IMG/VR virus record: IMGVR_UViG_3300011977_000424
Length of the DNA: 64,000 bases
Reading direction: 5' to 3' (one strand)
Origin: an uncultured virus (IMG/VR IMGVR_UViG_3300011977_000424)
Taxonomy: Duplodnaviria > Heunggongvirae > Uroviricota > Caudoviricetes
The notes below the pieces were generated by a model. That model saw only the letters and a program-made list of their open reading frames with translations, was not told the origin of the DNA and made no database searches. Shown piece after piece: positions 20,201-39,783 of the stretch (its first letter is position 1; each line of letters starts with the position of its first letter). The position numbers were made by a program, and so were the translations under genes.

Positions 20201-21502
20201 TTATGTAAATATGTATCTTATCTTTCCGTCGCCGTAGTGCTCCAGTTGTATCTCGGTGCGGAAGGGCATTAGTCCTTTGTCCTTGAACTGTTGCAGGAAA
20301 TAGAGCTGCTGCTTGTCCTCGGTGAAGTACTTACCCTGTGTCCCGTCCTCTTTCTCGAAGCTCACGAGCGTACGAAGTCCGTTCTTTGTCTTTACGTCTG
20401 TCTCAAAGTCCTTGATGATGATATGCGTGTTCACCAGTCGGGAGAGTTTCATCATTTCTCCGTTGAAGTGCTTCTTACCATCGTCGGCCTTGTATGTCAT
20501 TCCAACTTCCTTGAACTCTATCATAGTCTTTCCTGTTAATACATAGAACAGATGCCTGCCGTTGCAGTGTTTGAGCATGGCATACAGGCTCGCTTCCAGT
20601 TCATGCCTGCGCTTCTTGCTCTTCACTTTCTTTAGCCTACGGGCGGCTTTCTGTTTGTTTCGTTTCCTGAGCAATGTCTTTTCGGGGTATATCACATAGC
20701 CCAGATAGTCTATACCCTCCGTCACGGGAAATATCCGTTCGTTTGGCTTTATCGTCAGACTGATGGCCTCTGATAGCTCATTTACGATGTCACGGATAAT
20801 CCATAGCTTCTGTTTGTTGCTTGCGGCCTCGCTACCGTCGTCACAGTATCTGTAATGGTGGCTAAGCCTGTATTGGTCTTTCAGCACATGGTCAATATAG
20901 ATGCTCGCAAGCATGTTGGCAAGTATCTGGCTGCTTCTGAGGCCTATCGACAAACCATGTTCAAGCATGGTGATAAAGTCCTCCAACAGTGTAAGGGTGC
21001 GCTTGCCCTTGAAGATGTGCCTGCAACCTTGCATCATCACTTCGTGGTCTATGTTCTCGTAGAACTTTCTCCAGTCCCATTTATACCAGTACTTTGTTCC
21101 TTCGTGGTCCGTCAGGATGTCACGTCTGATATAGTTCAACAGGTCATGGGTGCCACGGTTCTTGATGCTGGCGGCGGTGGTTCTTATCCACCTGCCGTGT
21201 ATTTTTCTTTCCGCAACGGTGCAAAAGGCGTTCATGCCTACACGGTCATAGAGGCACACACTCTGCACTCGTCTAATCTTTGGCCCGTCGGTGACAAGCA
21301 TTTCATGATAGCCTTGCAGACGGAAGGTGCCATTCCTTAGCTCCGTCTGGAGCTTCTTTATCACCTCGTCACGGTGTTTGAGGATATATCGGCCTTGGTT
21401 GCTGTGCTTCCTGCGCTTGCCTCTCAACACCACTCCTATGCTGTCTGATATGTTGCCATAGTCGGCAACCTCGTCGAGCATTTCGTCACCTATACGTTCC
21501 AT
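20201..21502 (-). CDS. DGR reverse transcriptase with a fused ~107-aa C-terminal domain
   Basis: KWDWRKFYENIDH, GLSIGLRSSQ (DGR-type GxxxSQ), YRYCDD, GIDYLGY; adjacent TR/VR pair; ATG start chosen at MERIG (ORF track extends to TTG at 21610). Confidence 0.95.
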   Translation of the reverse strand: MERIGDEMLDEVADYGNISDSIGVVLRGKRRKHSNQGRYILKHRDEVIKKLQTELRNGTFRLQGYHEMLVTDGPKIRRVQSVCLYDRVGMNAFCTVAERKIHGRWIRTTAASIKNRGTHDLLNYIRRDILTDHEGTKYWYKWDWRKFYENIDHEVMMQGCRHIFKGKRTLTLLEDFITMLEHGLSIGLRSSQILANMLASIYIDHVLKDQYRLSHHYRYCDDGSEAASNKQKLWIIRDIVNELSEAISLTIKPNERIFPVTEGIDYLGYVIYPEKTLLRKRNKQKAARRLKKVKSKKRRHELEASLYAMLKHCNGRHLFYVLTGKTMIEFKEVGMTYKADDGKKHFNGEMMKLSRLVNTHIIIKDFETDVKTKNGLRTLVSFEKEDGTQGKYFTEDKQQLYFLQQFKDKGLMPFRTEIQLEHYGDGKIRYIFT

Positions 21503-21748
21503 ACCTATTCTATTTGTAGCCTTCCTTTTTTGATGCCCAAGTTCTTCGGCCGCTAACTTCTCTGTAGCCCTACCAAACTCTACATCCCGATTTATGTTTC
21601 CGCTTTCCAAACACCTTGTGATGGTGCTTGCTGCTGCCGAGGCTCATTCTCCCATGCTCAGCGTTGGGATATACATATCCCGGTGTCGTACGCATGTTAA
21701 TTTCTTCTGGCTACCACATCAAACGGTAAACCTTATTTCTTTCAGATT

Positions 21749-22011: not shown

Positions 22012-25000
22012 TCACGCCACCTGCGTCACGCTCAGGAACGCTTCGACGCTCTCAGCACGTTTTATCGTTCCTCGGAAGGCAAGCCGAGACCCGAGGTACG
22101 CATTCGAGAACGATGAATCGTAGTTCGCACCCGAGCACGACACACCGCCATTCGCGTACGCATAGTTGTTCGACCGATAGACCACACGAGCCGTTGCGCC
22201 AATATTGTATGCGTACATTCCATCGGCATAGTATGTGGTACTGCTGCCATAGCTGTTGGTAGCTGGCAACAGGTCCATAAACCTGCCGTGGATAACCCTG
22301 ATGGCATATCCGTCGCAATCGTAGGCCTTGGCAACTCGCTCCTCACCGTTCACGGTCACACGGAGCTTGTTGTCATGCAAGGTCTTGTTATACCATGTGT
22401 TGCCAAGCCACTCAGCCTTGTTGCCCCAAAGGTTTTCATAACCCAGTGCGCAAGGTGAGCTGATGTTAGTCTTGGTACCATCGGTATAGTTGTTCGCCTT
22501 GGTGCCTCCCACATTCACGTAGGCTGTCTGCTCGTCGGTGTCCGCATTGTTGGAGTATGTTTCCTGCATACCCGTGGCGTTGGTTCTGCCGTTAGTGCGT
22601 CCACTATCATTTGAGCCATAGCCGTTGGTGTCCTGAGCGTTCCTTGTGCCGTGGCTGGCAAAGTACAGGTTGCCGATGTCCTTGTGCATGTCCCAGTCGA
22701 TGAGCTGGAAACCGTCGCCTCTGTTCTTTGCGTAGGTGGTGAAGGCACTCTGGTTTACTCCTCCAGTAGAGACACGTCCCGACACTGAGCGTAGGATGTC
22801 GTCTACCATGTTGGCTTCATACACACCTATCAGGCACTCATCGTGGAATACCCAGTCAGGTTCAATGGCCTCAACATTGCCACTGGTACAGAAGAGCACA
22901 TAGTCCCAGTCCACACCGTCCTTGATGGTGATGGCCACTTTCTTGGCTTTCTCAGGCAACGTGCAGAAGAGATACATTCCGTCCATGAAGCCGTTGATAC
23001 TCTGTCCGTTCATGTAGCTCAACACATTGTTGTCCTCGTCGAGTATCAACGTGCCGTAAGCGGAAGATGCGAAGCTCGGCACTCTCACCTGCTTATACTC
23101 CTTGTCCGTCGGTATCTCTATCACGGCATAGTTGTATCCTGTGAGTGCGGTGATGGCCCTGCCAAGGGTCGTCTCATTCAGCTTCAGCGCATAGCCTGTG
23201 GTGATGGCCATATCGCTTTGCACGAGTTTCTTATACTCGCCCATCTGCTCCGGCTCGCTGTCCTCGTCGCCATTGGCATAGCAAGCATACTTCTTCTTGT
23301 TGGTGAGGTCGTTGATGCCCTTATACCAATACTTAGGCTCCCATATCATCACGTCACCACTGGGGCCTGTGAGGTCGGCTTTGGTGGCCTGCGTGTAGTC
23401 GTCGTTGTCAGCGAAGTAGTTGCTGTTGTCGTCGTGGAGCTGGCACACGGTCATTTCTCCAGTGGCCGTTTTCTTCGCAAGGTAACGGTGACGCTTCGCA
23501 AGGATGGCCGACACATGGGCACTCGGCTTGAAGGTGTTGTTGAATTTGTAACCTGTCTTGTTGTCAAGGTTGCTAATGTTGGCCGGGTCGCTGATGCTGT
23601 CGTCAAACTCAATGGTGGTGCAGGTCGGCTGCTTGATGGTCAGCTCGTCGAAGAAGCTCTTCAGCACGGCCAGTTTGTCGTCGTCCATGTAGCTGGTGAG
23701 CTGGTAATGGCCTGTCAGCTTACATGTGCCTACAACGATGTTTCCGTTCTCGTCCAGTCCTCCGAAGTCCTTGTCTTTGAGGGCTTGCAGGTCGCTACCG
23801 TCACCCTCTATATTAATATTGGTGATGCGTAGGTATTTCAGCTTGCTGCCACTGGTGGCCACAATCTCCTGCATGAGTGCGTAACCGTCGAGTTGCTCAC
23901 AGTTCTCAACACTCAGGCCTGTGAGGTTGGCGATATTGTCAAAGACAATACCATTTCTCTTGATGGCTGGTAAGCTCTTCAAGATAAGCGTCTGGAAGTT
24001 CTCAGGAAGATGCAGGCTTGCCAGTGGGCTGGCCTCGGCAAAGCTCATCGTGCTCATTGTCGTGCAGCCTGTGGCATCCACATACTCCAACTTCATGCAC
24101 TTAGAGAGGTCGAGACTGCTCAGGTTGGTGTAGTTCTGTATCTCCAGTTTCCTGAGCATCGGTAGCTGGCTACCAATGGCAAGCTCTGTCAGTGAGTAGG
24201 TCTTACCCGTTGACGCAAGGCCAAGGATAAGGTGCTCCAACACTGGCAAGCTCGGCAATGTGAGGTCGGTGAAGCCTCCCCACTGGCTAAGGTCGAGATA
24301 CTTCATCCATGTACCACCATACAGATGGAAGATTGTACCGATGTTGGCCTCTTCTGAGTAGGTGGCACTCCACTCTGCATCAGCCTCAACTTTATCATGC
24401 TGCAAGCTGGAGTTTTCACGCAACAGTTCAAAGTAGTACTGGCGGCTTGCCTTGGCCACTACCTTTGCGCCTGCTGCGCTGTTGCCTTTCCAACGAATAT
24501 CACTCATGGTGTAGGTGCCTGTGCTGGCCCATGCGTCAAGGAGGCTGTTGCGGTTCGTCACAAAGCGGTGGCGGTGGGTCTTGCGGCTTCCCTGCATGCT
24601 CTCCAGATAGGAGTAGGTCTGCTTCGTCTCTACTCCATTGGTAAGCACGCTGATACCCTGTGTCTTTGGTATCACATACTTGTTGATGGCATCTTGGTTA
24701 TACACGGCCTCACAGAACTTATCGCTCTGTTGCTCGTCGAAATACTTAAAGATGAGGTCGTTGGTCAGCTTTGCGCGGATGCGCTTGTAGCTGGCTTTAA
24801 GCTCCGTCTGGAACATGGCTCTGAGGTTGGCCCACAGCACACTGTCATGGCCTGCGTAGGCATACACGGTGTGGTCGGCTGTGCTCAGCTCTGCGTCCAC
24901 GGTGTTCTCGTCCACGTCCCAGTCGTATTTCAGTCGTCCGTCGTTGCGCACACCAAGGATGGTATCGCAATCGTAGAAGATAAAGTAGCCGAGTACCTTG

Positions 25001-28000
25001 CCCTTGTCGGGGTTATACCAGAAAGCAAGCATCATGTTCTTTACTCGTTGGTCACAGCAAGCGAAGATGTCGGTAAACTCGTAGTAGTCGCACAGATAGT
25101 CGGTGTCGAAATAGTCGCCTATCTCGTCATGGAACTTCTTTCTGCGGTTTTCCACGGTGTCGGCAACGCTGCTGCCATTGATGGTGATAGTGCCTCCGTC
25201 CACCACTGCGGTGGTGTCGGTGCTCTGCACCCACTTCACAAGTCTCTCAAGGAAGTAGGGCTTCACGGTGCCGTTGGCGTAGGCATCGTTCAGGGTGTCG
25301 TTGTCGGGGAAACGGCTCTCAAACACCTTCGTCCAGTCGGCAACCTCAGCCTTGGCGTCGCTGTCGTAGGTCTTGCTGTCGAAGTCGGCAGTCTTGAACA
25401 TGCCCATTGGATAGTCGTTGTTCAGGAACTCCCAACACTCTGTCGGGTTGTCACCCATGACGCTATCTTCTCCGTCCATCACGCTGAACTCTGTCTTGGC
25501 AAGGGTGGCGGCATCCATGCTGCCCTTCAACGTGTCGAAGTAGCTCTTCATGCGTGCGTCGTCATGGTAGCCGGGAATATCACAGAAGCCAAACACGGCC
25601 TCCGTGCTCTTGTCGTTGTTCCAGTTGAACTTGCCCAAGAAGATGGGGTCGTCGTCGAGCGTCGCACGGTAGAACATGTAGCATGGCTCTCCGTCCACGG
25701 TGGTGCGCACGTCGTAGTCGTACTTCGTGCGGTCCACATGCTGCTGTGCCGGGGTCACGTCGCCGATGGCCACAAGCACGTCGTTGGCGATACGTGCCAT
25801 ACCTGTGTTGTGCGAAGATGAGCTCTCGGCATAGTCGGCCTTGCCACACCAACAGTTCACTGGAGCTGCGATATACTCGTGGTTGTCGTCCTTCAGGTGG
25901 AAACTCCACTTGCCCTTCGCTGCCTCCGTGCCTCCTATGCCCTGCTCGTCGCAACCGATATACACCGGGCTCTGCGTCTTGTCGGCCTTCTTGGTGTAGA
26001 AGCGGTAGTTCTTGATAGGATAGGCCAGTGAGCTGGTACCCTGCAAACGGATGCAACCTCCGTCCACTCGCATGTTCTGTTCGGCATAGCCTCCCTTCAC
26101 ATAGGTGAGGATTTCGGTCACGTCGTACTTCTGACTTTTGTTGTTGTTCACTGCGGCTTGCAACACGGTGGGCACTCCGTTGGCCTCAACGCCTGTCACG
26201 ATAACCACTCGTGTGCCTTCGGGCACGCTGTCCACGGTGATGTTGCCGTTGGCATCGAAGATGTTGTTCTCCTCATACTGGGCAAACATGTCGTCGGCAG
26301 TCTCTTGGTCGATGATGTAGAGCGCAAGCATCTGGTGATGGGTTAGGAAGCTGGAGTAGGAGCGCATGTTGTACACGTCCACTGTGGCCTCGTCGGTGCC
26401 TCCGATGGTGATAGGCATGGCCGTGCCCTGATAGATGCTGTCGCTGCTGGCTCGCTGCACGCCATTGCTGGCGATACCGTCGATATACATGTAGAGCATC
26501 AGGTCGCTCTGCTGCTCGTCGATGCTACTGCCATCTTGCTTCTGGGGATAGGCCACAAAGCCCACCTCGTGCACCTCGCCACTGGCCATCTTCATGCTCA
26601 CGGTGCTCTTGCCTCTCGTCTGCATGCGTGCCTCCTGCGGTGTGATGACAAAGCCTGTTCCGTCAGCATCCACACAACTGATGATAACGGCATCCTCATT
26701 CGTCACCTCGCTGGCCTTGAACTTCACTTCAAAGGCAAAGGCGTTGGTGGGGTTGCTGCTCGGCTGCTCCAGTGGGTTGAAGTTCACCACGGTCTTGGCA
26801 CTGTTCTTATGTCTGAGGAAGGTGCCCATCCATCCGTCACCACCAAAGGTGAAGCCTGTCAGCGTCGATGTGCTGGTGCCGTCCGTCCACTCTTCCCTGT
26901 TTGCATCGTTGTTGGTGCGTCCGTCGGCAGTGAGTTTCAGCTTCAGGTTGTCGGTGGGCTCTTCAAGGTTCAGGTCGCTCTTCGAGCTTACGAGATTATA
27001 CGTGAATGTCGTCGCTCCAACGGTGATGGTACAGGGCAGTGTGCCTGCGTTGGCACTGCGAAGCGTGAGCTGGGTGTTGCTGAAGCTCACACGGCTCTGA
27101 CTAACCACTACTCCGTTCACTTTCACTGTGGCCAGTGTCGGGGTCTCCTTGGGGTTGTAGGCGGCAAAGTTCACATTGTAGGTGTCAAACTGTGTCGTCT
27201 GGATATATGGTGTTGCGCCTGCCTCTATGATGGTGCCGTCGGCATAGTCGAAGCGTGCCACGACAATAGGCGTGGTCTTGCCACTCTCTCTTACGGCTAT
27301 GCCCATGTAGATGCTGTTACTCTTCAGCACGGTGCCACTGGCAAGCTCCAGCTCGGCCACGAGTTGTATGCTGTGGGCTCCGTGAGTGAGGTTCAGGGTA
27401 GACAAGCTGAAAGCTCCTGTTGACGTGGAAGTGGTGATGCTCTTGTCTTGGCTCTGCACTCCGTCAAGATACATCTTCAACGTCTTGGTACCTGAGCCAC
27501 TGAGGGAGTAAGAAATACTGATGGTGTCGCCTCGGTTGATTACCGATGCAATGTTGAATGTCGATGTCAGCGTGAGCTGCACCACGTTCACGTTCCATGA
27601 GATAGTCTGCGACTGCACATAGTCGCCTGCGTCCACATTGGCCTTCACCTTCACAGTGTTGTTGCCCAGTCCAAGGTACTTGGTAACGTCGAGTGTCGTG
27701 GTGCTGCCTGCGGTGAGGTTGATGTTCAGTGTGTTGCTCGTCGCTCCGTGAACGATGGTGACAACGGCCGTGGCGGCGTTACCTGTGCTCTCGCCTGTGT
27801 CGGTGCTCACATGGTCGTAGGTGAAGCTGAGCTTCACTTGGTCGCCACTCTTCACCGTCGGGTTGGCACTGAGCTTGGTGAGCTGCACCTTCGTTGTGGC
27901 GGTGCTGCCTCCACCACCTCCTCCACTAAACTCGTCGGTCTGGCTTATCTCCTCTCCGTTCTGGTCCAGAAGGGAAAGGGAATAGGTCTTGCTGTCTCCG

Positions 28001-28872
28001 TCGCCGTTGGTGTTCAGCCTCAACGCTGCTCCGAAGTTCTTGCCCACCTGCTCAATGGCTGCGGCAACGGCCTTGTTCTGCGGTGGATTGGTGCTGTTCG
28101 GGTCGATGGTCTCGTCTGTCACCACTTCGGGTATCTGGAGATTGACGTTTCCGTCTGCGTCCGGGGTGAGCTCGCTTGTCACGGTGCCCTGAGTGACGTG
28201 TATCTTCTTGATAACGTCCTTGGCTCCGTACTCTACCCATGAGGCTGCATCGTAGAAGGCGGTGATGTCGTCCACTGAGAAGCGGAACTCCATCCATGTG
28301 CCTGCACTGGCCTCAAAGGTGATGATAAGGCCTTGCTTCAACTCGTCCTTGATGCTCACCTCTTTCAGGGCGGCAACGGCTCGCTCCTTGGTGTAGTAGT
28401 CGCCTGCGCTCAGTGGCACGGCCGACGTGACGTTGAGGAAGCCTCCACCAACGCTGTTGCCACTCACGGCCACAAGGCTGGCTGTGCCTGCGTCCCACAC
28501 ATACAGGTAGGTGTCACAGTAGAATGGCTTTTTCTGGAGCACTGCGCCTGTACTGTCCACATACAAGTCCATGCCAAGCCAGTAGGCGTAATAAGTCTGC
28601 CCTGAGCGTGCATAGAAACGCTTGGTGGCTTCATCGTAGGCAATGGCATCGTACTTGATAAGCGTCGTGTTCCTGTTGAATACGGTGTCCGTGCCACTCT
28701 TGAAAATTTCATTGAAGGGCGACAGACCACCTGTCAGGGCGAGCTTGTTCACGTCGCTCTGCGATTTCGCTTGGTCGCTGTCCCATATCTGGTCGCTCGT
28801 GGTGACGTGGCCGGGGTTCTCGCCGTTCATCCACTTTGCTACCAATGGGCCTAAGATTGGTATGTTATCCAT
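22012..28872 (-). CDS. DGR target: 2286-aa putative receptor-binding virion protein (beta-rich domains, CotH-kinase-like region, LRRs, C-terminal CLec-type domain)
   Basis: GYENLWGNKAEW and GSRLAF CLec motifs containing the VR; LRRs such as LSSLDLSKCMKLEYVDATGC; QGTSS..YPIKNYR, DQRVKN and YDCDTILG motifs. Confidence 0.85.
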   Translation of the reverse strand: MDNIPILGPLVAKWMNGENPGHVTTSDQIWDSDQAKSQSDVNKLALTGGLSPFNEIFKSGTDTVFNRNTTLIKYDAIAYDEATKRFYARSGQTYYAYWLGMDLYVDSTGAVLQKKPFYCDTYLYVWDAGTASLVAVSGNSVGGGFLNVTSAVPLSAGDYYTKERAVAALKEVSIKDELKQGLIITFEASAGTWMEFRFSVDDITAFYDAASWVEYGAKDVIKKIHVTQGTVTSELTPDADGNVNLQIPEVVTDETIDPNSTNPPQNKAVAAAIEQVGKNFGAALRLNTNGDGDSKTYSLSLLDQNGEEISQTDEFSGGGGGGSTATTKVQLTKLSANPTVKSGDQVKLSFTYDHVSTDTGESTGNAATAVVTIVHGATSNTLNINLTAGSTTTLDVTKYLGLGNNTVKVKANVDAGDYVQSQTISWNVNVVQLTLTSTFNIASVINRGDTISISYSLSGSGTKTLKMYLDGVQSQDKSITTSTSTGAFSLSTLNLTHGAHSIQLVAELELASGTVLKSNSIYMGIAVRESGKTTPIVVARFDYADGTIIEAGATPYIQTTQFDTYNVNFAAYNPKETPTLATVKVNGVVVSQSRVSFSNTQLTLRSANAGTLPCTITVGATTFTYNLVSSKSDLNLEEPTDNLKLKLTADGRTNNDANREEWTDGTSTSTLTGFTFGGDGWMGTFLRHKNSAKTVVNFNPLEQPSSNPTNAFAFEVKFKASEVTNEDAVIISCVDADGTGFVITPQEARMQTRGKSTVSMKMASGEVHEVGFVAYPQKQDGSSIDEQQSDLMLYMYIDGIASNGVQRASSDSIYQGTAMPITIGGTDEATVDVYNMRSYSSFLTHHQMLALYIIDQETADDMFAQYEENNIFDANGNITVDSVPEGTRVVIVTGVEANGVPTVLQAAVNNNKSQKYDVTEILTYVKGGYAEQNMRVDGGCIRLQGTSSLAYPIKNYRFYTKKADKTQSPVYIGCDEQGIGGTEAAKGKWSFHLKDDNHEYIAAPVNCWCGKADYAESSSSHNTGMARIANDVLVAIGDVTPAQQHVDRTKYDYDVRTTVDGEPCYMFYRATLDDDPIFLGKFNWNNDKSTEAVFGFCDIPGYHDDARMKSYFDTLKGSMDAATLAKTEFSVMDGEDSVMGDNPTECWEFLNNDYPMGMFKTADFDSKTYDSDAKAEVADWTKVFESRFPDNDTLNDAYANGTVKPYFLERLVKWVQSTDTTAVVDGGTITINGSSVADTVENRRKKFHDEIGDYFDTDYLCDYYEFTDIFACCDQRVKNMMLAFWYNPDKGKVLGYFIFYDCDTILGVRNDGRLKYDWDVDENTVDAELSTADHTVYAYAGHDSVLWANLRAMFQTELKASYKRIRAKLTNDLIFKYFDEQQSDKFCEAVYNQDAINKYVIPKTQGISVLTNGVETKQTYSYLESMQGSRKTHRHRFVTNRNSLLDAWASTGTYTMSDIRWKGNSAAGAKVVAKASRQYYFELLRENSSLQHDKVEADAEWSATYSEEANIGTIFHLYGGTWMKYLDLSQWGGFTDLTLPSLPVLEHLILGLASTGKTYSLTELAIGSQLPMLRKLEIQNYTNLSSLDLSKCMKLEYVDATGCTTMSTMSFAEASPLASLHLPENFQTLILKSLPAIKRNGIVFDNIANLTGLSVENCEQLDGYALMQEIVATSGSKLKYLRITNINIEGDGSDLQALKDKDFGGLDENGNIVVGTCKLTGHYQLTSYMDDDKLAVLKSFFDELTIKQPTCTTIEFDDSISDPANISNLDNKTGYKFNNTFKPSAHVSAILAKRHRYLAKKTATGEMTVCQLHDDNSNYFADNDDYTQATKADLTGPSGDVMIWEPKYWYKGINDLTNKKKYACYANGDEDSEPEQMGEYKKLVQSDMAITTGYALKLNETTLGRAITALTGYNYAVIEIPTDKEYKQVRVPSFASSAYGTLILDEDNNVLSYMNGQSINGFMDGMYLFCTLPEKAKKVAITIKDGVDWDYVLFCTSGNVEAIEPDWVFHDECLIGVYEANMVDDILRSVSGRVSTGGVNQSAFTTYAKNRGDGFQLIDWDMHKDIGNLYFASHGTRNAQDTNGYGSNDSGRTNGRTNATGMQETYSNNADTDEQTAYVNVGGTKANNYTDGTKTNISSPCALGYENLWGNKAEWLGNTWYNKTLHDNKLRVTVNGEERVAKAYDCDGYAIRVIHGRFMDLLPATNSYGSSTTYYADGMYAYNIGATARVVYRSNNYAYANGGVSCSGANYDSSFSNAYLGSRLAFRGTIKRAESVEAFLSVTQVA
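22079..22192 (-). repeat. DGR variable repeat (VR) in the target C-terminus
   Basis: Encodes ARVVYRSNNYAYANGGVSCSGANYDSSFSNAYLGSRLA; TR would encode ARVVYRSNNNANANGGVSYSNANNDSSNTNANIGSRLA. Confidence 0.97.
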
Positions 28873-31429: not shown

Positions 31430-32968
31430 TTACGCCACAAGTTCCTCATCGGTAACACCAAGTTTGGTGTCAAACTCAGGACGGAACACACGGGCGTGGG
31501 CGTTGGGGAAGTAAAGGGTCCAACAACTGAACTCCTCCATCACAACGGCGTTACTATTGCGGATGAAGAGGTCTTTCAGGTTGTACTCCTTACGGCTCCA
31601 GTCACCAAATACCCACTTCTCCAGGTATCGGGGATCCAACAGGAAGGCGCAACCACTCATGCCCATGTAGTTGAAGGCATCGTGGCGATAGATGAGAATC
31701 TTTGTGCCCATGCTGCTGAAGCTCTCGAAGTCAAGTCCCCAGTTGCGATAGTTGCTCTCGGTCTGAGTGATAATGCGCTTGTTGCTCTTGAGGTTGCTGA
31801 ATGCCTGATAGATGAGGTTATCCACAAAGAACAGCTTGGTACGGCTACCGTTACCGGCGTCTTTGATTACGTTGTTCACAAAGCTGGTAAGCTCCTTCTC
31901 AGAAATCACGTACTCATAGACGGTCTTTTCAACGGTGCTGCCGTCACCCTTGCCGGCGTCTACTGTGGCCGTAACGGCTTTCTTGTTGCCCTGAGCATCA
32001 ATCTCGATCTTCGGTGCCCAGTGGCCAAGCTGGATGTCCTTGCCGGCGGTCCAATAGATACCACCAGTGGTGTAGACGTTACCATTTTTGCCGTAACGTG
32101 TCTTGCTCTTGATACCAAACAGGCCGGAACGTTCCATACCGTCGCGCATATCGTCCATGGCAATGCGCTCCTGCTTGGAGAAGTCCCAGTCAAGGGTCTT
32201 AGCGCTCATGCGCTCAATGATGCTCTCCTCAGCCTGCATGATGAAGCGCTGGCAATACTGCTCGCTGGCCTCGGGAAGCTGATAGTAGCTGGCGGTCTCT
32301 ACGTCGGTCTCACCGGCTGCACGGCCAAGACGCAACATCAGCGTGCCGGCTGGGATGTCGGGGAGGTCCCAACGGTTGCCCTTAGTGGTGTTCTTCTTAC
32401 CATTGATGGCTATAACCATGGGGTTGAGATCGTCGTTCTGGGCCACAACACGTACCATGAGGGGCTTGATAGTGGAGCGAGTAGTGCCGTCGTCCTCATA
32501 ACCCATGATGTTGGGGAAGAGGATAGAGTCCATACTGTCAAAGACGGTATTGTTCACTGGCGTGATCTTCGTCGCTGCACCTGTGGTAGTGGCGGTAATC
32601 TTCTCTTCCAGGGTGGTAGTGATCGGGCGCTGGCCAATCTCGTAGTACTTCACGGTGATACTCTTCGAGTGATTGGTACGGGTAGAAGCGCGAAGGATCT
32701 GGTCGATAGGACAACTCTCCAACTTCATTTCACAGATACGCTTGTTGATCTGCGTAACATAGAAGTCGTAGTCCTTGTTCTGACCTTCCACTATCTCCTC
32801 GCTCTGGGTATGGGAGTTTGCACCTCCCACACCGGTACCAGGACCATCAAGAGGGCCTACCGGGTCTGTGATGGCAGGATCATCTGCAAGGGCAAATGCG
32901 CTGCCGGAACTGAGGATCATAACTGCGGTGGCAATCATGAATCCAAACCAATGCTTAAATGTTTTCAT
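31430..32968 (-). CDS. Major capsid protein (SU10/DUF5309-like) with a hydrophobic signal-like N-terminal leader
   Basis: Follows the scaffold gene and precedes a terminator; QYCQRFIMQAEES, MERSGLFG, TTGGIYW motifs. Confidence 0.8.
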   Translation of the reverse strand: MKTFKHWFGFMIATAVMILSSGSAFALADDPAITDPVGPLDGPGTGVGGANSHTQSEEIVEGQNKDYDFYVTQINKRICEMKLESCPIDQILRASTRTNHSKSITVKYYEIGQRPITTTLEEKITATTTGAATKITPVNNTVFDSMDSILFPNIMGYEDDGTTRSTIKPLMVRVVAQNDDLNPMVIAINGKKNTTKGNRWDLPDIPAGTLMLRLGRAAGETDVETASYYQLPEASEQYCQRFIMQAEESIIERMSAKTLDWDFSKQERIAMDDMRDGMERSGLFGIKSKTRYGKNGNVYTTGGIYWTAGKDIQLGHWAPKIEIDAQGNKKAVTATVDAGKGDGSTVEKTVYEYVISEKELTSFVNNVIKDAGNGSRTKLFFVDNLIYQAFSNLKSNKRIITQTESNYRNWGLDFESFSSMGTKILIYRHDAFNYMGMSGCAFLLDPRYLEKWVFGDWSRKEYNLKDLFIRNSNAVVMEEFSCWTLYFPNAHARVFRPEFDTKLGVTDEELVA

Positions 32969-32995
32969 TTGCTTGTTGTTTAATGAATTGATGTT

Positions 32996-33124
32996 TTAAC
33001 TTATTTGATGCTTATATAGGTCCGGCTGGCCTTCGGCGTTGATAACATCCTCGGTCTTGCTGCGGCTGTGGGCTCCTCTGACAATGTAACCGGCTCCTTT
33101 CAGTTTTCCGTAATTCGTTTTCAT
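32996..33124 (-). CDS. 42-aa peptide paralogous to the MCP N-terminal arm, absent from the ORF track
   Basis: MKTNYGKLKGAGYIVRGAHSRSKTEDVINAEGQPDLYKHQIS*; TAATG coupling to the scaffold stop; 12/35 identities to MCP residues 40-75. Confidence 0.7.
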   Translation of the reverse strand: MKTNYGKLKGAGYIVRGAHSRSKTEDVINAEGQPDLYKHQIS

Positions 33125-33918
33125 TAGCCAAACGCATATTTCATGCGATCCAGGGCGGCCATCTGGCTGTCCTTCGGCTTCTCGGGCTTGGCGTTGCCTC
33201 CACCACCTCCCACATCGGGTGGCATGTTGCGGCGCTTCTGCTGCTTGTGCTCGAACATGTCGATACGCTCGTTCTTGCCTCGCTTATAGCCTCTGTCCTC
33301 ACTCTCGGCCATCTTTACGTCGTAGTCTTTAATGCGGAACAGTTTAATGAAATCGTCCTTGGTAAGCTCGAAGTTGGCGGCGCGGCGAATAAAGCCGGTC
33401 TTGCTGTCATAGATCCAACTGATAAGGTCCTTCACCTGCTCGGGCTTGTAGTTGGATTCTTTCAGGGCGGCGTCAAGCTCGTCATCCTCTTTCTTCACCT
33501 TGGCATCCTTGTCTTTCAGGAAGGCAGCCTCAGCATCTTCATCGGCCTTGCGCTGCTTGCTCCGGCCTGCCCAACGTGCCTTCGCTTTGTCGGGGCCGTT
33601 CTGGGCATAGTCCTGGAGATAGTCCACAACATCGTCGTTGCTCAGGAGCCAGTCGCGCAAATCGAAGTCGCTGCCGTCGGGGTTCTTCTTGCTGATAAGG
33701 CCGGCAAGGATCTCGGGGGCATACTTGGTACTCTTCAACGCCTCGTTAAGCTTGCCTCGCTGCTCCTGCATCTGGTCATACTTGTCAAGGTCGTCGTTGG
33801 CGGCGCCGTACAATGCCTCATCGTCGTCTCCGTTAAACTCCGGATTCGATTTCTTAAAACGGTCCACCATTCTTTGGCGGTTCGTAATAGTCTGTTTCTC
33901 AGCGTTTTCTTTTGCCAT
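33124..33918 (-). CDS. Putative capsid scaffolding protein
   Basis: Charged helical protein upstream of the MCP; start at MAKENAEK. Confidence 0.65.
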   Translation of the reverse strand: MAKENAEKQTITNRQRMVDRFKKSNPEFNGDDDEALYGAANDDLDKYDQMQEQRGKLNEALKSTKYAPEILAGLISKKNPDGSDFDLRDWLLSNDDVVDYLQDYAQNGPDKAKARWAGRSKQRKADEDAEAAFLKDKDAKVKKEDDELDAALKESNYKPEQVKDLISWIYDSKTGFIRRAANFELTKDDFIKLFRIKDYDVKMAESEDRGYKRGKNERIDMFEHKQQKRRNMPPDVGGGGGNAKPEKPKDSQMAALDRMKYAFG

Positions 33919-33946
33919 AACGTTATCGCGATTTGTTTTCTTTGCG

Positions 33947-33987
33947 TAAAGATAAAGGTACTTTTTTTGTTGGCAGTCATAAAATAC
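33947..33987 (-). promoter_or_regulatory. Putative late promoter copy 2: GTATTTTATGAC-N21-TATCTTTA
   Basis: Box 33976-33987; -7-like element 33947-33954 with one mismatch. Confidence 0.75.
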
Positions 33988-34070
33988 CAATCTAAATTGT
34001 TATTTTTACCCAATTCACTTAATATCAATACCAAATAAATTTGTTATTTTTGCATAGCCGACTTGATAAA

Positions 34071-34505
34071 ATGAAACATAAGGGCTCTATAACTGACACC
34101 TATATCCATCGTGACAATGTTGTTTTGCCGGCATTGTTCCGCAAAGCTAAGGAAGTGGCGAGTTATCCAACCACCATGAAGGAGCTTTGCCAAATAGCTG
34201 CGTCTCTGCCCGTGCCCTATTTCTGTATCAGCTATGATGCGGCTCTCGACTATATCCGTAACCGGCTGCTGCATGGTAGGATAAAACGGTTTAAGACTGA
34301 GTACAAAAACCAACTCTTTGAAGCGCTCTACCAAACGGTGCTCTCGCTCATGGAGGATGGGCGGCGCGACATAAAGAAGGTTACGCTACTGGCACTCGAC
34401 AAACCGGCCCCCTGCGTGGGTATTTCTCCGGTCTGCATAATGAATAAGCTCTACGATTTAAAGAATAAAAAGTTCAAAGTTCAAAGTTCAAAGTTCAAAG
34501 TATAA
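34071..34505 (+). CDS. Phage protein with internal repeat; candidate DNA-binding regulator
   Basis: Repeats PVPYFCIS / PAPCVGIS; own -7 element TATTTTTG at 34045-34052. Confidence 0.6.
   Translation: MKHKGSITDTYIHRDNVVLPALFRKAKEVASYPTTMKELCQIAASLPVPYFCISYDAALDYIRNRLLHGRIKRFKTEYKNQLFEALYQTVLSLMEDGRRDIKKVTLLALDKPAPCVGISPVCIMNKLYDLKNKKFKVQSSKFKV
34469..34501 (+). repeat. Heptamer tandem repeat (AAAGTTC)x4 plus partial copy
   Basis: Read directly from the sequence; lies just before the TAATG stop/start junction. Confidence 0.95.
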
Positions 34506-34999
34506 TGACAAAGTTCTACATCACACTGGCTTTCTGCCTGCTGCTCATTCCGTTCATAGCACACACATCGTGGTTTGCTGTGGGGGCCTCAACGGCTCTC
34601 TACACTCACTTCGTGTATATGTTCGGACACTCTGGCTGGCTTCATTGGGCCGTAAATGCCTGGAGCCTGTTGATGTTGCACAATGCCATACGATGGTACC
34701 GACTGCTGGCGGCCTACGTGCTCTCGGTACTATTGTCTTTCGTCTACCTGCCTGCACTTCCTGTGGTGGGAATCTCTGTTTTCGTGGTGTTCCTGCTGGG
34801 TATGGCGGCCACTCAGATATGGCGTCGGGATCGGTGGGCACTCGGCCTCACCATGGGATTGCTCCTCATGGGGTGCTTTCTGCCAGGCTTCGCCGGTGTC
34901 TATCACGTGGTGATGTTCTGTCTCGGCTTCGCCTTCTATCGGCTGGAGCGTCTTGTTCGTCGGTTTGTTAATTACGCGCAACGTGGCAACAGCGACTAA
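34505..34999 (+). CDS. Rhomboid-family intramembrane serine protease
   Basis: YMFGHSGWLHWAVN (HxxxxHxxxN), VVGIS (GxS), YHVVMFCLG (catalytic His); multiple TM segments. Confidence 0.8.
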   Translation: MTKFYITLAFCLLLIPFIAHTSWFAVGASTALYTHFVYMFGHSGWLHWAVNAWSLLMLHNAIRWYRLLAAYVLSVLLSFVYLPALPVVGISVFVVFLLGMAATQIWRRDRWALGLTMGLLLMGCFLPGFAGVYHVVMFCLGFAFYRLERLVRRFVNYAQRGNSD

Positions 35000-37136
35000 G
35001 ATAAAGAAACAAGCAAAGATGCCTCACGCGCTCTTTGATAGTATCATCAAGGAGGATAAGCGCCGTATCTTGGTGCTCTTTGAGGGCTACGATCCCATGA
35101 CGGGCCGTAATGCTCCTGGAAAGCGCTTCCGGTGCGTGCTCACCGATTTCTTCGCCGGTCAGGAACTGTGGCTTCCTGTTGAAATGTTGAAGTCGTCGTT
35201 TGTCTGTGCGCTCGTCAAGGCTGGCTCTATACGCTCCTATATCGAAAAGTACATGCCTGATAGCAGCTATGAGAAAGCGCGTGAAGCTATCGTGCGCCGG
35301 TTCTCTCGCCTGCGCTGCAAGCATGATTTCTATTTCTTTGCCTATGCTTATGCCAGGATCAAGAATAAGGAGGGCGGCCCGGACATTCCTTTCTACCTGC
35401 GTCCTGCCCAGGTGAAGTGTTGCAAGGTCTTTGAGCACCTGCGTCTGGCTGGCCTGCCTATCTTCGTGATTTTGTTGAAGTGCCGTCAGTGGGGTGGCTC
35501 TACGCTCACCGACATCTACATGGCATGGATAATGATATTCTGGAAAACCAACTGGAACTGCAATATTGTCGGCCATCAGTCTACATCGTCTATCACGGTG
35601 TTCAATATGTATGAGCGCCTTATCAACTCTATTCCTCTCTGGCTCTTCTATGACACTGGAGAAGAGTATAAGACGGATGCACGCAAGATCAAGAATGATT
35701 CCAAAAATCCAAACATCAAATACTTGGTGCCTCGCAACTGTAAGATACAGACTGGCTCGGCGCTTAATCCTGAATCGGCTCGTTCTGACGACGTGGCAAT
35801 GGCTCATATCACGGAGGAGGCTTTCTTCCCTGATACGGAGAAGTGGACACCGGCAAAGGTGGTGAAGTCGGTAATTGCACCTATCATGTTGAAGCCTTAT
35901 TCCTTCGTGGTGCGTGAAAGCACGCCTAACGGCTCTGAGAATGAGTATCACGACGAGTGGGTAAAGGCTAAACAAGTGGATGAGCACGGAAACAAGCTCT
36001 CTGCATATACGCCTGTGTTCGTGGCATGGTTTGAGATTGAGACGTACTTTGAGCACATGACTGACGATGAACGTGCCGACTTCCTGATAGATCTCTGGAA
36101 GATGCGCAAGGATGGGGGCATTGGCGAATACTTGTGGTCACTATGGGAGAAGGGCGCTACCATTGAGGGTATCAAGTGGTATTGGGATAAAGCAAAGACT
36201 TTCGATTCCTACCCGTCTCTTGACGACATGCAGCAAGAGTACCCGTCCGACGACATCGAAGCATTCAAATACTCTGGCTCTGCGGTGTTCGACATCTATC
36301 AGGTGGAAGCACTGCGTGACGACTGCCAGGAGCCTGTCTTTGTCGGCGACATTGAGGGCGCAAGCGTCTCTCCTGAGCTTCCGGAGTGCATGGATAATGT
36401 GCACTTGGTAGAGCAACGCGGCGGCCCATTGAAGGTGTGGGAAATGCCGGATGATACAGAAGATGTGCGTAACCGGTATCTCGTCGCCTGTGATATTGGC
36501 GGTTCTCATCGTACTTCTGACTACTCGGATATAGTGGTGCTTGACCGTTACGATGAAATGTACGGTGGTGTTCCAGTGGTCGTCGCGGAGTGGCACGGGC
36601 ACTGTGATCCGGATCAACTGGCAATGCGCTGCGCTCAGATTTCCCACTTCTACTATGATGCCTTCTTGGTGGTGGAGAATAACACGGCCTACTCGAAGAT
36701 GAACAACACCGACGGTGACGTCTCTGAACTCTTCTTCCCAATCCTCGTGCCTCTCTATGATAACATCTATAACAGTAACCATAGCAAGACACTAAAGCGC
36801 AAGCCAAAGGAATTGCGCTGGGGATTCAACACCAACACCTCAACAAAGGTGGGTGTGATAATGAACTTGAAGAGTATCATCCGTACATCTGGATATATCG
36901 AGCGTGAACAGGAGGCGCTTAATGAATACTCCTACTACATGCAATATCCGGATGGTAAGTACGGCAACGTGCCAGGCAAACATGATGATAGGGTGATGGC
37001 CAGGGCCATTGCGCTCTACGTCGATAAGCTGGAAATGGATCCTGTCTACGTCGTGAAGATTAAGACACGTGAAGAGATAGCTGCAGAAGAGCGCCGAAAG
37101 AAAAAGCCTCTGGCGCCTGAACTCGTCTTTAGATAA
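34983..37136 (+). CDS. terL: Terminase large subunit
   Basis: LKCRQWGGST (Walker A), AHITEEAFF (Walker B), ESTPNG, CDIGG, VVENN, HDDRVMA; start uncertain (GTG 34983 or ATG 35019). Confidence 0.92.
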   Translation: MATATKIKKQAKMPHALFDSIIKEDKRRILVLFEGYDPMTGRNAPGKRFRCVLTDFFAGQELWLPVEMLKSSFVCALVKAGSIRSYIEKYMPDSSYEKAREAIVRRFSRLRCKHDFYFFAYAYARIKNKEGGPDIPFYLRPAQVKCCKVFEHLRLAGLPIFVILLKCRQWGGSTLTDIYMAWIMIFWKTNWNCNIVGHQSTSSITVFNMYERLINSIPLWLFYDTGEEYKTDARKIKNDSKNPNIKYLVPRNCKIQTGSALNPESARSDDVAMAHITEEAFFPDTEKWTPAKVVKSVIAPIMLKPYSFVVRESTPNGSENEYHDEWVKAKQVDEHGNKLSAYTPVFVAWFEIETYFEHMTDDERADFLIDLWKMRKDGGIGEYLWSLWEKGATIEGIKWYWDKAKTFDSYPSLDDMQQEYPSDDIEAFKYSGSAVFDIYQVEALRDDCQEPVFVGDIEGASVSPELPECMDNVHLVEQRGGPLKVWEMPDDTEDVRNRYLVACDIGGSHRTSDYSDIVVLDRYDEMYGGVPVVVAEWHGHCDPDQLAMRCAQISHFYYDAFLVVENNTAYSKMNNTDGDVSELFFPILVPLYDNIYNSNHSKTLKRKPKELRWGFNTNTSTKVGVIMNLKSIIRTSGYIEREQEALNEYSYYMQYPDGKYGNVPGKHDDRVMARAIALYVDKLEMDPVYVVKIKTREEIAAEERRKKKPLAPELVFR

Positions 37137-37177: not shown

Positions 37178-37672
37178 ATGGACAAAAGAATTACAACCTT
37201 CCTCAACAACTGCCTCTATCGTGTCTATGCGCCGGTGGCTTATCGTGTTGAGAAGTACCGGGCCACTCGTATGTGGCACGACGGCGTGCGTCAATGTGTG
37301 AAGATGTATAAAGAGATAGGTTCGCCTCGCGTCTATCTCTTCTTCGATGCCAAACACATGGTGTGGTCGCCTATGACGTATGAGGAGAATAAGAAATACA
37401 AACCGTCGTTGCGTGTGCTGCGGCGAATGGGCAAGTTGCGTGGATCCAACCTGCCCACAAACGTTGAGGATATGAAAGCTAAGTCTTTCTACTACACGCC
37501 TTCTAAATGGGGTGCGCGCGGCTGTTATGAGGATAACGAGCTGCGCGCACGAAAGTTAAAGCAATGGGTGGCGTATTATCTCACCCATCTGTCGCCTGTT
37601 ATGTTGAAGCTCCGGCACTACCGGTCTGCGCTGGCAAAGCCTCTCCATCCTTCGACGGCAGAATGTGATTAG
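37178..37672 (+). CDS. Hypothetical basic protein
   Basis: 164-aa ORF; its 3' end overlaps the portal 3' end by 74 bp. Confidence 0.6.
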   Translation: MDKRITTFLNNCLYRVYAPVAYRVEKYRATRMWHDGVRQCVKMYKEIGSPRVYLFFDAKHMVWSPMTYEENKKYKPSLRVLRRMGKLRGSNLPTNVEDMKAKSFYYTPSKWGARGCYEDNELRARKLKQWVAYYLTHLSPVMLKLRHYRSALAKPLHPSTAECD

Positions 37673-39659
37673 TATTCTGCTGCTGGGGCTGGCCTTGGAT
37701 AACAGGCTGCTGACCTGCGGCGGCCTGTTCCATGGCCTGTTGTGCCTTGCGCTGGTTAAAGTCCATCCAGGCGCGCTTGAGCTGCTGGTGTCCGCCATTG
37801 CCAATGAAGTCAAGGAACTGTCCAAAGTCAATCTCGTTGCGCTGGTATGCCTGGTAGGCAATATCTTTCATTTGGTCACGGATAACGGGGTTGTCGTTGT
37901 CAGGAGCCATTGCGAGTGACAAATCAATATCACTCATCTTCTTCCTGTCAAAGTAGGTCTTGAAGTCCTCACCGGTCATGATGATACTGCGCTGGCTGCT
38001 GTAATAGCCCTGCATGGTCCACACCTGTTTCTTGGCTACTCTGAGCTGGAAGTTGTTGTAACTGCTGATATAGTCGGTAACACTCGTTACGGCGCTGTCC
38101 TTCTCTATCTGGTACTGCTTGCCGGAGGTGTTCTTGTGCACACCTTGCATGGCTGGCTGAATACCACTCTGGCGCTCTACCATGTTGGCGTCGCGCTGCA
38201 TGATGAGGTCTATGCCGGCCGGCAAGCTCTTGTTCTGAATCTGTGTAGGCATGTTTCCACCTTTCTTGCTGGTGTATAGGATAATTCCGTCTACCTTCAC
38301 GTAGTTCTCTACCATTTCCTCGAAGCTCTGCTTGTCGCTGATACTCTCCACATCAATGGCCATGGCGCCTTTGGCGCTGTTCATGATGATAAAGTCAAGC
38401 ATGATGTTGTCGTGGGTGTACTGCCTCTGACGGTCTATCATGCGGTCCACAAAGCTTCTCACCTCTCCCTGCAAGCAAGGATAGGCCAGGAACACGTAGG
38501 GATGATAATAGAAACTATATCCTTCCCTCACAACCTTATAGGGGCTAACACCTTCATCAAGCAAATACCCGTTGGGACTGATGAAGCGGTAGTACCACAA
38601 ATCTTCAATGCCAAACTCATACTCTATCAACTGGAGCTCGTCGGGATCCACATAGTAGGTGGGGTTGCCGTCTGCGTCAAGCACGGGCACACCGTTCTCA
38701 TCCTTCACGATGTTGTCTTGCTTGCGCTTCTCGTTCTCAGCGTCCATGGCGGCCTTGTCTTTCAACGGGCGGTAGCCTACGGTGGCGTTAAGCCTGTCGT
38801 GGTACCAATAAGCGCGGTTATACTCCTTGGTCCATATCTCGATAACGCGGTACTTGCCTACAACGCTGGAGTGATAAAAGTCGTCCAGGTGGTCGGTCTG
38901 ATTCATGCCGGTATCATTGTAGCCCTGCACATAGGCGTTGTTCTGGGCGTTGGCTGCGTAGATTTGGCTTAGCTCGTTCTCCTCGGCGGTGGTATGGGCA
39001 AAGAGTTGCAACAGTGCCGGCCAGGTGAGATCGTGAGCCTCAGCAATAAACTCAACGTCGCTCGCGTCCTTCTTGGCAAACACGGGTAATGCTAATTTGA
39101 ACTGGTCCACACTGTCTACAAACACATCTTCACGGCCTTCACGGAAAGTGTACTGCACCTTGGCACCAACAAATCCCATATCGGCAAACTGCTCGAAGCG
39201 GTCGGCGTTCTGCTCGCTCATGTTGTTATTATTGTCGTTCTGGCGAAGGAACTCACTGAAGATACCGGCCATATTGCTGTCGTTTTGGTCGGTGTCTACG
39301 CTCTTCACCTGGGGCGACATGTATTGCTGCCTAACGGTACCTTTCAACGACATCATCTTATCGCTGATAATATCGAAGGGGATAGCGGCCATGCCCTTGA
39401 TCTCCATATACTGCTGCACGGTATATTCACGGCCATTGTACACTACCTTATCGTTGAACTGGCGGCCCATGTAGTAGTCTATATCTCGCACAAACTTCTT
39501 ACGCAAGTCGCGCATATCGTCGTAATAGTGGGCGGCCTCGCGCACGAGAAGGGCATATTTCCGGTCGTTACTGAAACGACTGTGATCATAGCCTCTCAGG
39601 GAGTTGGCGCCTCGCTCCTGAGCGTTGGTATTCTCATTTGTCAGTTGAGCTTGTATCAT
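37599..39659 (-). CDS. Portal protein (P22-like)
   Basis: DIDYYMGRQF, HPYVF...GEVRSFVDRMIDRQRQY, NSAKG, Gln-rich tail; start at MIQAQL. Confidence 0.85.
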   Translation of the reverse strand: MIQAQLTNENTNAQERGANSLRGYDHSRFSNDRKYALLVREAAHYYDDMRDLRKKFVRDIDYYMGRQFNDKVVYNGREYTVQQYMEIKGMAAIPFDIISDKMMSLKGTVRQQYMSPQVKSVDTDQNDSNMAGIFSEFLRQNDNNNNMSEQNADRFEQFADMGFVGAKVQYTFREGREDVFVDSVDQFKLALPVFAKKDASDVEFIAEAHDLTWPALLQLFAHTTAEENELSQIYAANAQNNAYVQGYNDTGMNQTDHLDDFYHSSVVGKYRVIEIWTKEYNRAYWYHDRLNATVGYRPLKDKAAMDAENEKRKQDNIVKDENGVPVLDADGNPTYYVDPDELQLIEYEFGIEDLWYYRFISPNGYLLDEGVSPYKVVREGYSFYYHPYVFLAYPCLQGEVRSFVDRMIDRQRQYTHDNIMLDFIIMNSAKGAMAIDVESISDKQSFEEMVENYVKVDGIILYTSKKGGNMPTQIQNKSLPAGIDLIMQRDANMVERQSGIQPAMQGVHKNTSGKQYQIEKDSAVTSVTDYISSYNNFQLRVAKKQVWTMQGYYSSQRSIIMTGEDFKTYFDRKKMSDIDLSLAMAPDNDNPVIRDQMKDIAYQAYQRNEIDFGQFLDFIGNGGHQQLKRAWMDFNQRKAQQAMEQAAAGQQPVIQGQPQQQNTNHILPSKDGEALPAQTGSAGAST

Positions 39660-39678
39660 AGCTAATGGATATTTTGCA

Positions 39679-39719
39679 CAAAAATAAGGCGTTATCGCTC
39701 GTCTGTGGTCATAAAATAC
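39679..39719 (-). promoter_or_regulatory. Putative late promoter copy 3: GTATTTTATGAC-N21-TATTTTTG
   Basis: Box 39708-39719, -7 element 39679-39686; upstream of the portal. Confidence 0.8.
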
Positions 39720-39783
39720 ATATTTTATAACTTTCACTTTCTGTTTCTGCCGTATCTTTGAAGCAAAAATAATTTGTAACACT

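Follow-up and report, generated by a model that had tools for sequence, protein, structure and literature searches.

The 64,000-nucleotide stretch of DNA analysed here (IMG/VR record IMGVR_UViG_3300011977_000424, hereafter "the window") is that of a temperate Bacteroidales phage, in which integrase and CI-type repressor genes are present. Its head and packaging module encodes both an intramembrane protease of the rhomboid family, directly upstream of the gene for the large terminase subunit (terL), and a major capsid protein (MCP) that begins with a secretion-type leader. We tentatively favor, at somewhat short of an even chance, the reading that the phage rhomboid acts on the capsid leader, either as its leader peptidase or by clearing it. 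The link between rhomboid and leader is circumstantial. What suggests it is that in the head and packaging operon the rhomboid belongs to the core genes and has conserved catalytic residues, that apart from it only the MCP of this module is of membrane type, and that no other protease was found.

According to this reading, the MCP would be made as a precursor whose first 28 residues constitute a Sec-type membrane-inserting leader ending at an invariant Ala and followed by a flexible acidic linker. The rhomboid, in the inner membrane, would cleave the hydrophobic segment at its Gly/Ser-rich end or close to it, or would clear the leader stub after cleavage, and would stand in for the soluble prohead protease that was not found in the window. 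It is in this conditional sense that membrane insertion and cleavage of the MCP, the naming of a protease responsible and a connection with packaging are to be understood. The elements concerned are the following.

32885..32968, minus strand: MCP leader, residues 1–28 (translation, DNA and conservation)
32783..32884, minus strand: MCP linker, residues 29–62, acidic and Gly/Pro/Thr-rich, between junction and core
31430..32782, minus strand: MCP core, SU10/HK97-type, residues 63–512 plus stop codon (PF17236)
34505..34999, plus strand: phage rhomboid, 164 amino acids, six-helix core only (family profile, fold and motifs)
34628–34630, plus strand: rhomboid H42 codon
34643–34645, plus strand: rhomboid H47 codon
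34655–34657, plus strand: rhomboid N51 codon
34775–34777, plus strand: rhomboid S91 codon
34904–34906, plus strand: rhomboid H134 codon

The phage rhomboid

As originally predicted, a rhomboid gene lies near the MCP gene, the open reading frame (ORF) 34505–34999 of the plus strand beginning 1.5 kb from the MCP start. Its product matches the Pfam family Rhomboid (PF01694) with E 0.004 and 17.7 bits, under the 22.6-bit gathering cutoff, and matches no NCBIfam model, including TIGR03902, at E ≤ 0.01. Because the Pfam score is sub-threshold, membership of the family was tested by profile and by fold. A profile of 20 homologues (15–49% identity), drawn from phage contigs and Bacteroidales genomes, matches GlpG at 9.8e-6 with the HxxxxHxxxN motif, the GxS motif and the His of transmembrane helix (TM) 6 in register. 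The window residues align with GLSG (S201) and AHIAG (H254) of GlpG, and F40, H42, H47, G89, S91, H134 and G141 are invariant among the homologues. The AlphaFold model of the protein has a pLDDT of 93.8 and a pTM of 0.88, and the top 37 matches found by Foldseek in the PDB are all GlpG or iRhom (TMq 0.54–0.68, probability 0.99–1.00, E-values of only 3e-3 to 5e-2). Judged by sequence and model, the product of 34505–34999 is a six-helix rhomboid with catalytic residues and fold intact.

The GxS and His catalytic motifs had already been read from the sequence. S91, within VVGISVF, and H134, in TM6, are indeed invariant, whereas the string GHSGW, despite its likeness to GxSG, belongs to the TM2 motif HxxxxHxxxN, formed by H42, H47 and N51, of which the two histidines are invariant and N51 is replaced in some relatives. 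Invariance of these residues across 20 rhomboids, together with the fold and profile match with GlpG, argues for selection for an active protease, as far as sequence and model can tell.

The capsid protein and its leader

The MCP, a protein of 512 amino acids encoded on the minus strand (31430–32968), scores above the gathering cutoff (24.1 bits) of the Pfam family SU10_MCP (PF17236; 6.5e-17, 62.4 bits) and matches phrog_26635 at 2e-75, and the profile of its family matches PDB entry 9in6 ("major capsid of VP1") at 1.5e-24. Translation yields exactly the start quoted in the original prediction, MKTFKH-WFGFMIATAVMIL-SSGSAFALA-DD. It consists of a basic n-region (MKTFKH), a 13-residue hydrophobic run (WFGFMIATAVMIL), the helix-breaking Gly/Ser residues SSGS and the junction AFALA. 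With n-, h- and c-regions in order, Ala at −3 and −1 and an acidic mature start devoid of positive charge, the segment is built like a Sec signal of the kind processed by signal peptidase I (SPase I). The junction is followed by a 34-residue linker that is poorly conserved in the MCP alignment, tblastn identity to the cultured phages described below beginning at residue 63–68.

Several lines of evidence indicate that the leader is a genuine part of the protein. In 81 close relatives (63 distinct sequences) replacements within it are conservative, retained residues are encoded by multiple codons and differences fall mainly in third positions, a coding-type pattern indicating that the leader is translated and constrained at the protein level. 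It is kept in MCP homologues down to 19% identity, A28 being invariant in 20 diverse rhomboid-linked MCPs. The start codon is an ATG in an A-rich context, and an internal start bypassing the leader is unlikely, for from residue 17 to the core the frame offers no start codons but the GTGs of V47 and V60, and the leader is coding-constrained.

In 37 rhomboid-linked representatives inspected by eye, P1 of the junction is always Ala (37/37), P4 is a large hydrophobic residue (V/Y/F/W/M/I) in 34 of the 37, with Gly, Ser or Thr before it, 31 have a small or aliphatic residue at P3 and the other six a Met, and P1′ is chiefly D, E or A. Rhomboid substrates reportedly have a small P1, a hydrophobic P4 and helix-breaking residues, and their motif includes a hydrophobic P2′. 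The junction thus fits the rhomboid motif in part (small P1, hydrophobic P4, no hydrophobic P2′), and it fits SPase I.

The MCPs of three loci (L089–L091) have ~70 extra N-terminal residues preceding the leader, an amphipathic stretch being followed by a Gly/Asn/Asp-rich run.

Co-occurrence and synteny of rhomboid and leader

The MCP family is large: IMG/VR holds at least 497 relatives of the window MCP, and a library of representatives holds 442 clusters homologous to its core, among the top 150 of which most begin with a hydrophobic leader, a minority being leaderless. A first-round set of 84 loci comprised the best 80 IMG/VR relatives, three cultured phages and the window; the leader is present in all 84 MCPs and the rhomboid in 83 of the loci, the single miss being a locus that ends 1352 nucleotides upstream. 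To this set were added 35 IMG/VR loci retrieved with a leaderless-MCP profile and 28 loci from the 28 of 401 Bacteroidales genomes having an MCP match; loci with hmmsearch E > 1e-40 (L087 being kept) and N-truncated ORFs were dropped before counting. Of the resulting 145 typed loci, 108 have the rhomboid, all of them with a leader; 32 have a leader without phage rhomboid; four (L141, L145, L146 and L149) are leaderless and without rhomboid; and one (L076), whose flank is cut, is classed as undetermined. One locus (L148) was counted as rhomboid-bearing after a rhomboid–terL block was found 15 kb away.

The original prediction that rhomboid and leader would co-occur was borne out in one direction, since no rhomboid was found without a leader and none with a leaderless MCP, but not in the other, the leader being present without rhomboid in 32 loci. 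Near the four leaderless MCP genes, and elsewhere in their genomes, no phage-type rhomboid was found. Most rhomboid-bearing loci were found via the MCP, the search having started from the rhomboid only for five loci and five genomes; in this rhomboid-first direction a leader-bearing MCP lies alongside in 5/5 Bacteroidales genome loci. Among the 401 Bacteroidales genomes, a phage-type rhomboid beside terL occurs in five, each with a leader-bearing MCP, and those with leaderless or rhomboid-less MCP loci contain no rhomboid except three of cellular type.

The position of the gene is nearly fixed. In 106 of 107 rhomboid-bearing loci terL follows the rhomboid gene directly, on the same strand, and in all 107 the rhomboid gene is divergent from the MCP gene, at a distance of 1052–1903 nucleotides. 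Three cultured Bacteroides phages, BF1-TP2 (PQ571263), BKO1-TP3 (PQ571269) and BS-TP4 (PQ571277), show the same succession of small gene, rhomboid gene and terL, from which the scaffold and MCP genes diverge, and, like the window, have the leader on the MCP and a giant polyvalent protein, although their MCPs are only 31–38% and their rhomboids 25–26% identical to those of the window. These rhomboids were located through synteny; tblastn of the window rhomboid against GenBank phages gave no match, and tblastn with the three finds each other only. In GenBank their terL products are labelled "tail spike protein" and their MCPs DUF5309 or DUF2951 proteins, the rhomboid of BKO1-TP3 being labelled "glycoside hydrolase".

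In a tree of 58 MCP representatives, the lineages with a rhomboid branch deeply and are paraphyletic; those without it make up two nested clades, one of which includes the leaderless MCPs. Two features of the leader were considered as discriminators of the two classes and abandoned. The length of the hydrophilic gap initially set the classes fully apart (23–75 vs 5–17 amino acids) but ceased to do so once L148, with 15, was shown to bear a rhomboid as well as a leader homologous with the one in L117, a sister locus that has the rhomboid too, so that the range in rhomboid-bearing loci became 15–75; as to the h-region, the deep-branching rhomboid-bearing leaders have, by eye, 16–18 hydrophobic residues, which overlaps the rhomboid-less range.

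Relatives of both genes are also found in chromosomal settings. MCP-family matches of the rhomboid-less kind occur in 23 of the 401 genomes, and many of the chromosomal matches are small cassettes made of a scaffold-like gene, a leader-bearing MCP gene and a few more genes (L126 6258–10292, L130 7058–14988 and similar ones among L124–L143) that sit amid housekeeping genes with no terminase nearby. Three loci (L126, L130 and L141) were mapped gene by gene. Such cassettes may represent satellites, what is left of phages, or capsid genes that have been domesticated. Furthermore, members of the small-protein family encoded upstream of the phage rhomboid are paired with a related rhomboid of 190–361 amino acids in L154 (7534–8930), L155 (8095–9062) and L152 (1077–2162), two of these three pairs lying beside alaS and none having an adjacent terL or capsid gene; possibly these are copies of the phage pair that were domesticated or persist as remnants.

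Search for other proteases

The premise that the window lacks a recognizable prohead protease holds: none was found among ~50 ORFs compared with Pfam and 33 compared with PHROGs, these scans of the window ORFs revealing no soluble enzyme of the HK97 gp4, T4 gp21 or ClpP/S49 type. Likewise, no other protease was found near the MCP in the rhomboid-less loci L095, L113 and L116. In the remainder of records G002, G004 and G005 the only find was a fusion of ClpP with a coiled-coil scaffold in G004 (L157 2529–3566), a provirus record that also contains L098. As this fusion is 20 kb from the MCP gene and next to Mu-type head genes (portal, F and gp36), it probably belongs to a second element, and no homologue of it was found within 8 kb of any typed MCP gene.

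Does the rhomboid act on the capsid leader?

The original prediction held that the MCP is tethered to the inner membrane and released by the rhomboid. Part of what this idea predicts was found, namely a syntenic core pairing and the lack of any other detectable protease or membrane-inserted head-module protein; the simple tether-and-release scheme, on the other hand, is at odds with leaders having the same junction in phages without rhomboid, with a textbook −3/−1 signal peptidase site and with a leader predicted to be N-in facing a protease whose active site is periplasmic. The full version, in which the MCP is Sec-inserted in the inner membrane, heads are nucleated there and the rhomboid is the maturation protease releasing the MCP, is accordingly held to be rather unlikely, whereas the coupling of maturation to packaging, whose sole basis is gene adjacency, may at most be conjectured.

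The observations that weigh against an action of the rhomboid on the leader concern its distribution, the sequence of the junction and the topology of the two proteins. To begin with, the 32 leader-only relatives keep both the leader and an x-[L/M/I]-Ala junction (e.g., AYALA-AVIP) with no phage rhomboid in the DNA searched. In ten of these loci the surroundings are clearly those of a phage, terL being adjacent and the rhomboid slot between it and the small gene being empty; the upstream DNA amounts to 3.3 kb or more in nine of the ten. In L095, L096, L113 and L116 terL comes straight after the small gene. In several other leader-only loci the upstream DNA is too short to judge. A whole-record search of five leader-only phage records (completeness 28–93%, most being incomplete) found a rhomboid in none (0/5). 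The existence of such relatives indicates that the leader does not need a phage rhomboid. Furthermore, rhomboid-less leaders have the same junction (e.g., DCAYALA-AVIP...GGKIVxGEPLTT) and the residues past it align with the N-termini of leaderless homologues, which points to a family-wide, rhomboid-independent processing at the Ala junction. Finally, since the rhomboid state requires about two changes on the MCP tree, the co-occurrence amounts to few independent events.

As to the junction, a −1 Ala in 37/37 and a small or aliphatic −3 residue in 31/37 representatives suit host SPase I, and P2′ is usually D, T, A or P and not hydrophobic as in the rhomboid motif.

Topology presents the chief difficulty for this reading. 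Lys2 and Lys5 precede the hydrophobic segment and Asp29–Asp30 come after it, so that an N-in, C-out orientation is predicted, while by inspection the positive-inside loops of the rhomboid (RWYR, RRDR and the C-terminal RRFV) suggest the topology of GlpG, with the active site facing the periplasm. With the leader N-in and the periplasmic face being where the rhomboid, like signal peptidase, cuts, cleavage would free the MCP on the periplasmic side; yet portal, scaffold and terminase have no leader and heads form in the cytoplasm. By way of pure conjecture, the leader and linker might enter the membrane in looped form, with the folded core remaining inside and the chain slipping back after the cut. 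A predicted complex of the rhomboid with MCP residues 1–64 scored 0.02 against a mark of 0.32 and, as no controls were run, was used neither way.

Alternative explanations

If the leader can be processed without a phage rhomboid, what could the rhomboid be for? In the alternative that survives best, host SPase I (or no protease) handles the leader everywhere and the rhomboid cuts a holin, an antiholin, a spanin or another phage membrane or host envelope protein, its adjacency to terL reflecting late co-expression. The occurrence of leaders with the same Ala junction in phages devoid of rhomboid and the obedience of this junction to the −3/−1 rule are what such an explanation would lead one to expect; candidate substrates exist, inasmuch as the window encodes spanin-like and multi-TM holin-like proteins, and the chromosomal rhomboids of L152, L154 and L155 are paired with the small protein with no capsid gene beside them. 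It accounts less well for the fixed position of the gene in the head and packaging operon of very diverged phages, which fits morphogenesis better, and for a distribution in which the leader is found in 108/108 rhomboid loci and the rhomboid in 0/4 leaderless ones, and it would leave Sec export of a capsid protein followed by its cleavage by signal peptidase without an explanation. Overall, we consider it a serious though unlikely alternative.

An action of the rhomboid as a signal-peptide peptidase would reconcile an SPase-like junction with the presence of the leader in every rhomboid-bearing phage: SPase I would cut at the Ala and the rhomboid would degrade the tens of thousands of leader peptides left behind, thereby sparing the membrane and the Sec machinery until lysis. 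The MCP is the most abundant late protein, and the Gly/Ser-rich helix-breaking residues lie within the leader itself. However, the rhomboid-less relatives manage without such an enzyme, and bacteria are known to clear signal peptides by means of SppA and RseP, not rhomboids; this explanation therefore appears improbable.

The idea that the hydrophobic N-terminus is no membrane element but an assembly or scaffold-like propeptide, or a segment retained in the virion, the rhomboid being unrelated to it, has a precedent in the N-terminal delta domains of HK97-type capsid proteins, which are assembly propeptides, yet it can be largely set aside because the segment has the full n-h-c Sec layout with an early mature region devoid of positive charge, a separate scaffold-like gene exists and no prohead protease emerged from the window scans. 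An article on Porphyromonas phages (PMC10367356) lends it some encouragement, for it mentions in passing predicted signal peptides on some capsid proteins and offers the guess that prohead proteases remove them.

Relation to known systems

An action of the rhomboid on the leader, which we continue to favor tentatively, would have partial parallels in several known systems. Like GlpG of E. coli and H. influenzae and like AarA of Providencia stuartii, which are rhomboid proteases of MEROPS family S54, the window rhomboid has a six-helix core, the HxxxxHxxxN motif in TM2, the Ser of GxS in TM4 and the His in TM6. Unlike them, it is phage-encoded, consists of a minimal core without extra domain and is part of a head and packaging operon; with respect to GlpG, moreover, GxSG reads GxSV, the Pfam score is below the gathering cutoff and activity is predicted from sequence and fold. 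As a candidate substrate, the MCP leader is comparable to TatA, the substrate of AarA, in its one hydrophobic segment, its small and helix-breaking residues and its P1 Ala, the difference being that TatA is N-out whereas the MCP leader is predicted to be N-in.

The features shared with Sec signal peptides cut by LepB are the n-region, the 13-residue h-region, the Gly/Ser c-region and the Ala residues at −3 and −1. The MCP leader is, however, far more conserved than ordinary signal peptides, and its cargo is the MCP of a tailed phage, assembled in the cytoplasm with portal, scaffold and terminase proteins that are leaderless.

HK97 gp4, T4 gp21 and lambda C likewise belong to systems in which the head module encodes a protease and an HK97-type capsid protein is extended at its N-terminus. 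These enzymes are soluble proteins that become packaged in the prohead and whose cleavage sites are hydrophilic, whereas the only protease found in the window is an integral membrane protein and the propeptide resembles a membrane signal. Rhombosortase and its GlyGly-CTERM substrates (TIGR03902) also combine a dedicated enzyme of the rhomboid family with a signal made of Gly-Gly, a hydrophobic helix and a basic cluster; the phage signal is instead N-terminal and mirror-imaged, and the window rhomboid gives no match with TIGR03902 at E ≤ 0.01. In the literature searched, no publication was found that links a phage rhomboid to capsids or describes the pairing.

Other features of the head module and of the window

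The remaining genes of the head and packaging module are the following.

33124..33990, minus strand: scaffold-like charged protein, directly upstream of the MCP (phrog_22323, 1.7e-8)
34071..34505, plus strand: small conserved protein, 144 amino acids from the ATG (DNA and family motif)
35019..37136, plus strand: large terminase subunit, terL (phrog_2, 9e-22)
37599..39782, minus strand: portal protein (Pfam P22_portal, 1.5e-21; phrog_156, 5e-33)

The small gene, the rhomboid gene and terL, on the plus strand, are thus divergent from the scaffold-like and MCP genes on the minus strand, with the portal gene beyond, also on the minus strand; the MCP gene is flanked by the scaffold-like gene and by an adaptor-like gene. 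The stop codon of the small gene and the start codon of the rhomboid gene overlap (TAATG), and the likely start of terL is the ATG at 35019, 19 nucleotides past the rhomboid stop, the longest ORF beginning at a TTG (34953). The overlap of rhomboid and terL that was originally described therefore exists only if the TTG is used and gives way to a 19-nucleotide gap with the ATG; in the relatives the corresponding distance ranges from −47 to +92 nucleotides (median 32). Being translationally coupled to the upstream small gene and located immediately before terL, the rhomboid is probably co-produced with the head and packaging proteins. Apart from it, the MCP is the sole head-module protein of the window with a hydrophobic segment.

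The scaffold-like gene, which likely starts at an ATG inside the ORF (residue 25), is matched by a gene of the same size at the same position in every relative inspected, and a scaffold role of its product is presumed. The small protein, for which Pfam, PHROG and NCBIfam gave no match, belongs to a family with the motif ERDxDF...RFYVS...PAPxFY, common to phages with and without rhomboid and to the chromosomal rhomboid pairs; it might bind DNA or be the small subunit of the terminase.

Elsewhere in the window the following genes were recognized.

1060–2493: integrase
3174–3500: CI-type repressor
17922–18395: spanin-like protein
18479–18928: amidase
18915–19403 and 19416–19688: holin-like multi-TM proteins
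20201–21610, minus strand: reverse transcriptase (PF00078; phrog_1423, 2e-76)

The reverse transcriptase gene adjoins that of a 2286-residue tail protein (22012–28872, minus strand), and the two look like a diversity-generating retroelement targeting the tail protein. A single ORF of 7103 residues (40359–61670, minus strand) encodes a giant polyvalent DarB-like protein in which InPase, N6 DNA methylase, ResIII and Helicase_C domains are recognized; the counterpart in BKO1-TP3 is labelled "DarB-like antirestriction". Just outside the integrase gene, positions 1–864 of the plus strand encode a BspA-type leucine-rich-repeat protein with a lipoprotein-like signal (PF13306, 2e-63), which may be either host flank or phage cargo.

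Biological significance

Head assembly of tailed phages is viewed as a soluble, cytoplasmic process and the known maturation proteases as soluble enzymes packaged in the prohead. What the window presents follows the known scheme in which the capsid protein bears a propeptide and the head module encodes a protease, with the difference that the propeptide is of the membrane-signal kind and the enzyme intramembrane. Among abundant gut Bacteroidales phages, a large clade equips its shell protein with a conserved secretion-type leader, and many of these phages have their own intramembrane protease in the packaging operon.

Were the link between the two true, it would represent a new maturation route and provide one of very few natural bacterial rhomboid substrates; were the membrane-nucleated version true as well, it would be the first case of an intramembrane protease in virion morphogenesis and of a membrane-tethered HK97-type capsid precursor. 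Even if rhomboid and leader were unlinked, a capsid protein bearing a signal peptide would still call for an explanation. Since three cultured phages share the arrangement, the question can be tested at the bench, and the link, if true, would offer a natural and genetically tractable rhomboid–substrate pair in gut Bacteroides.

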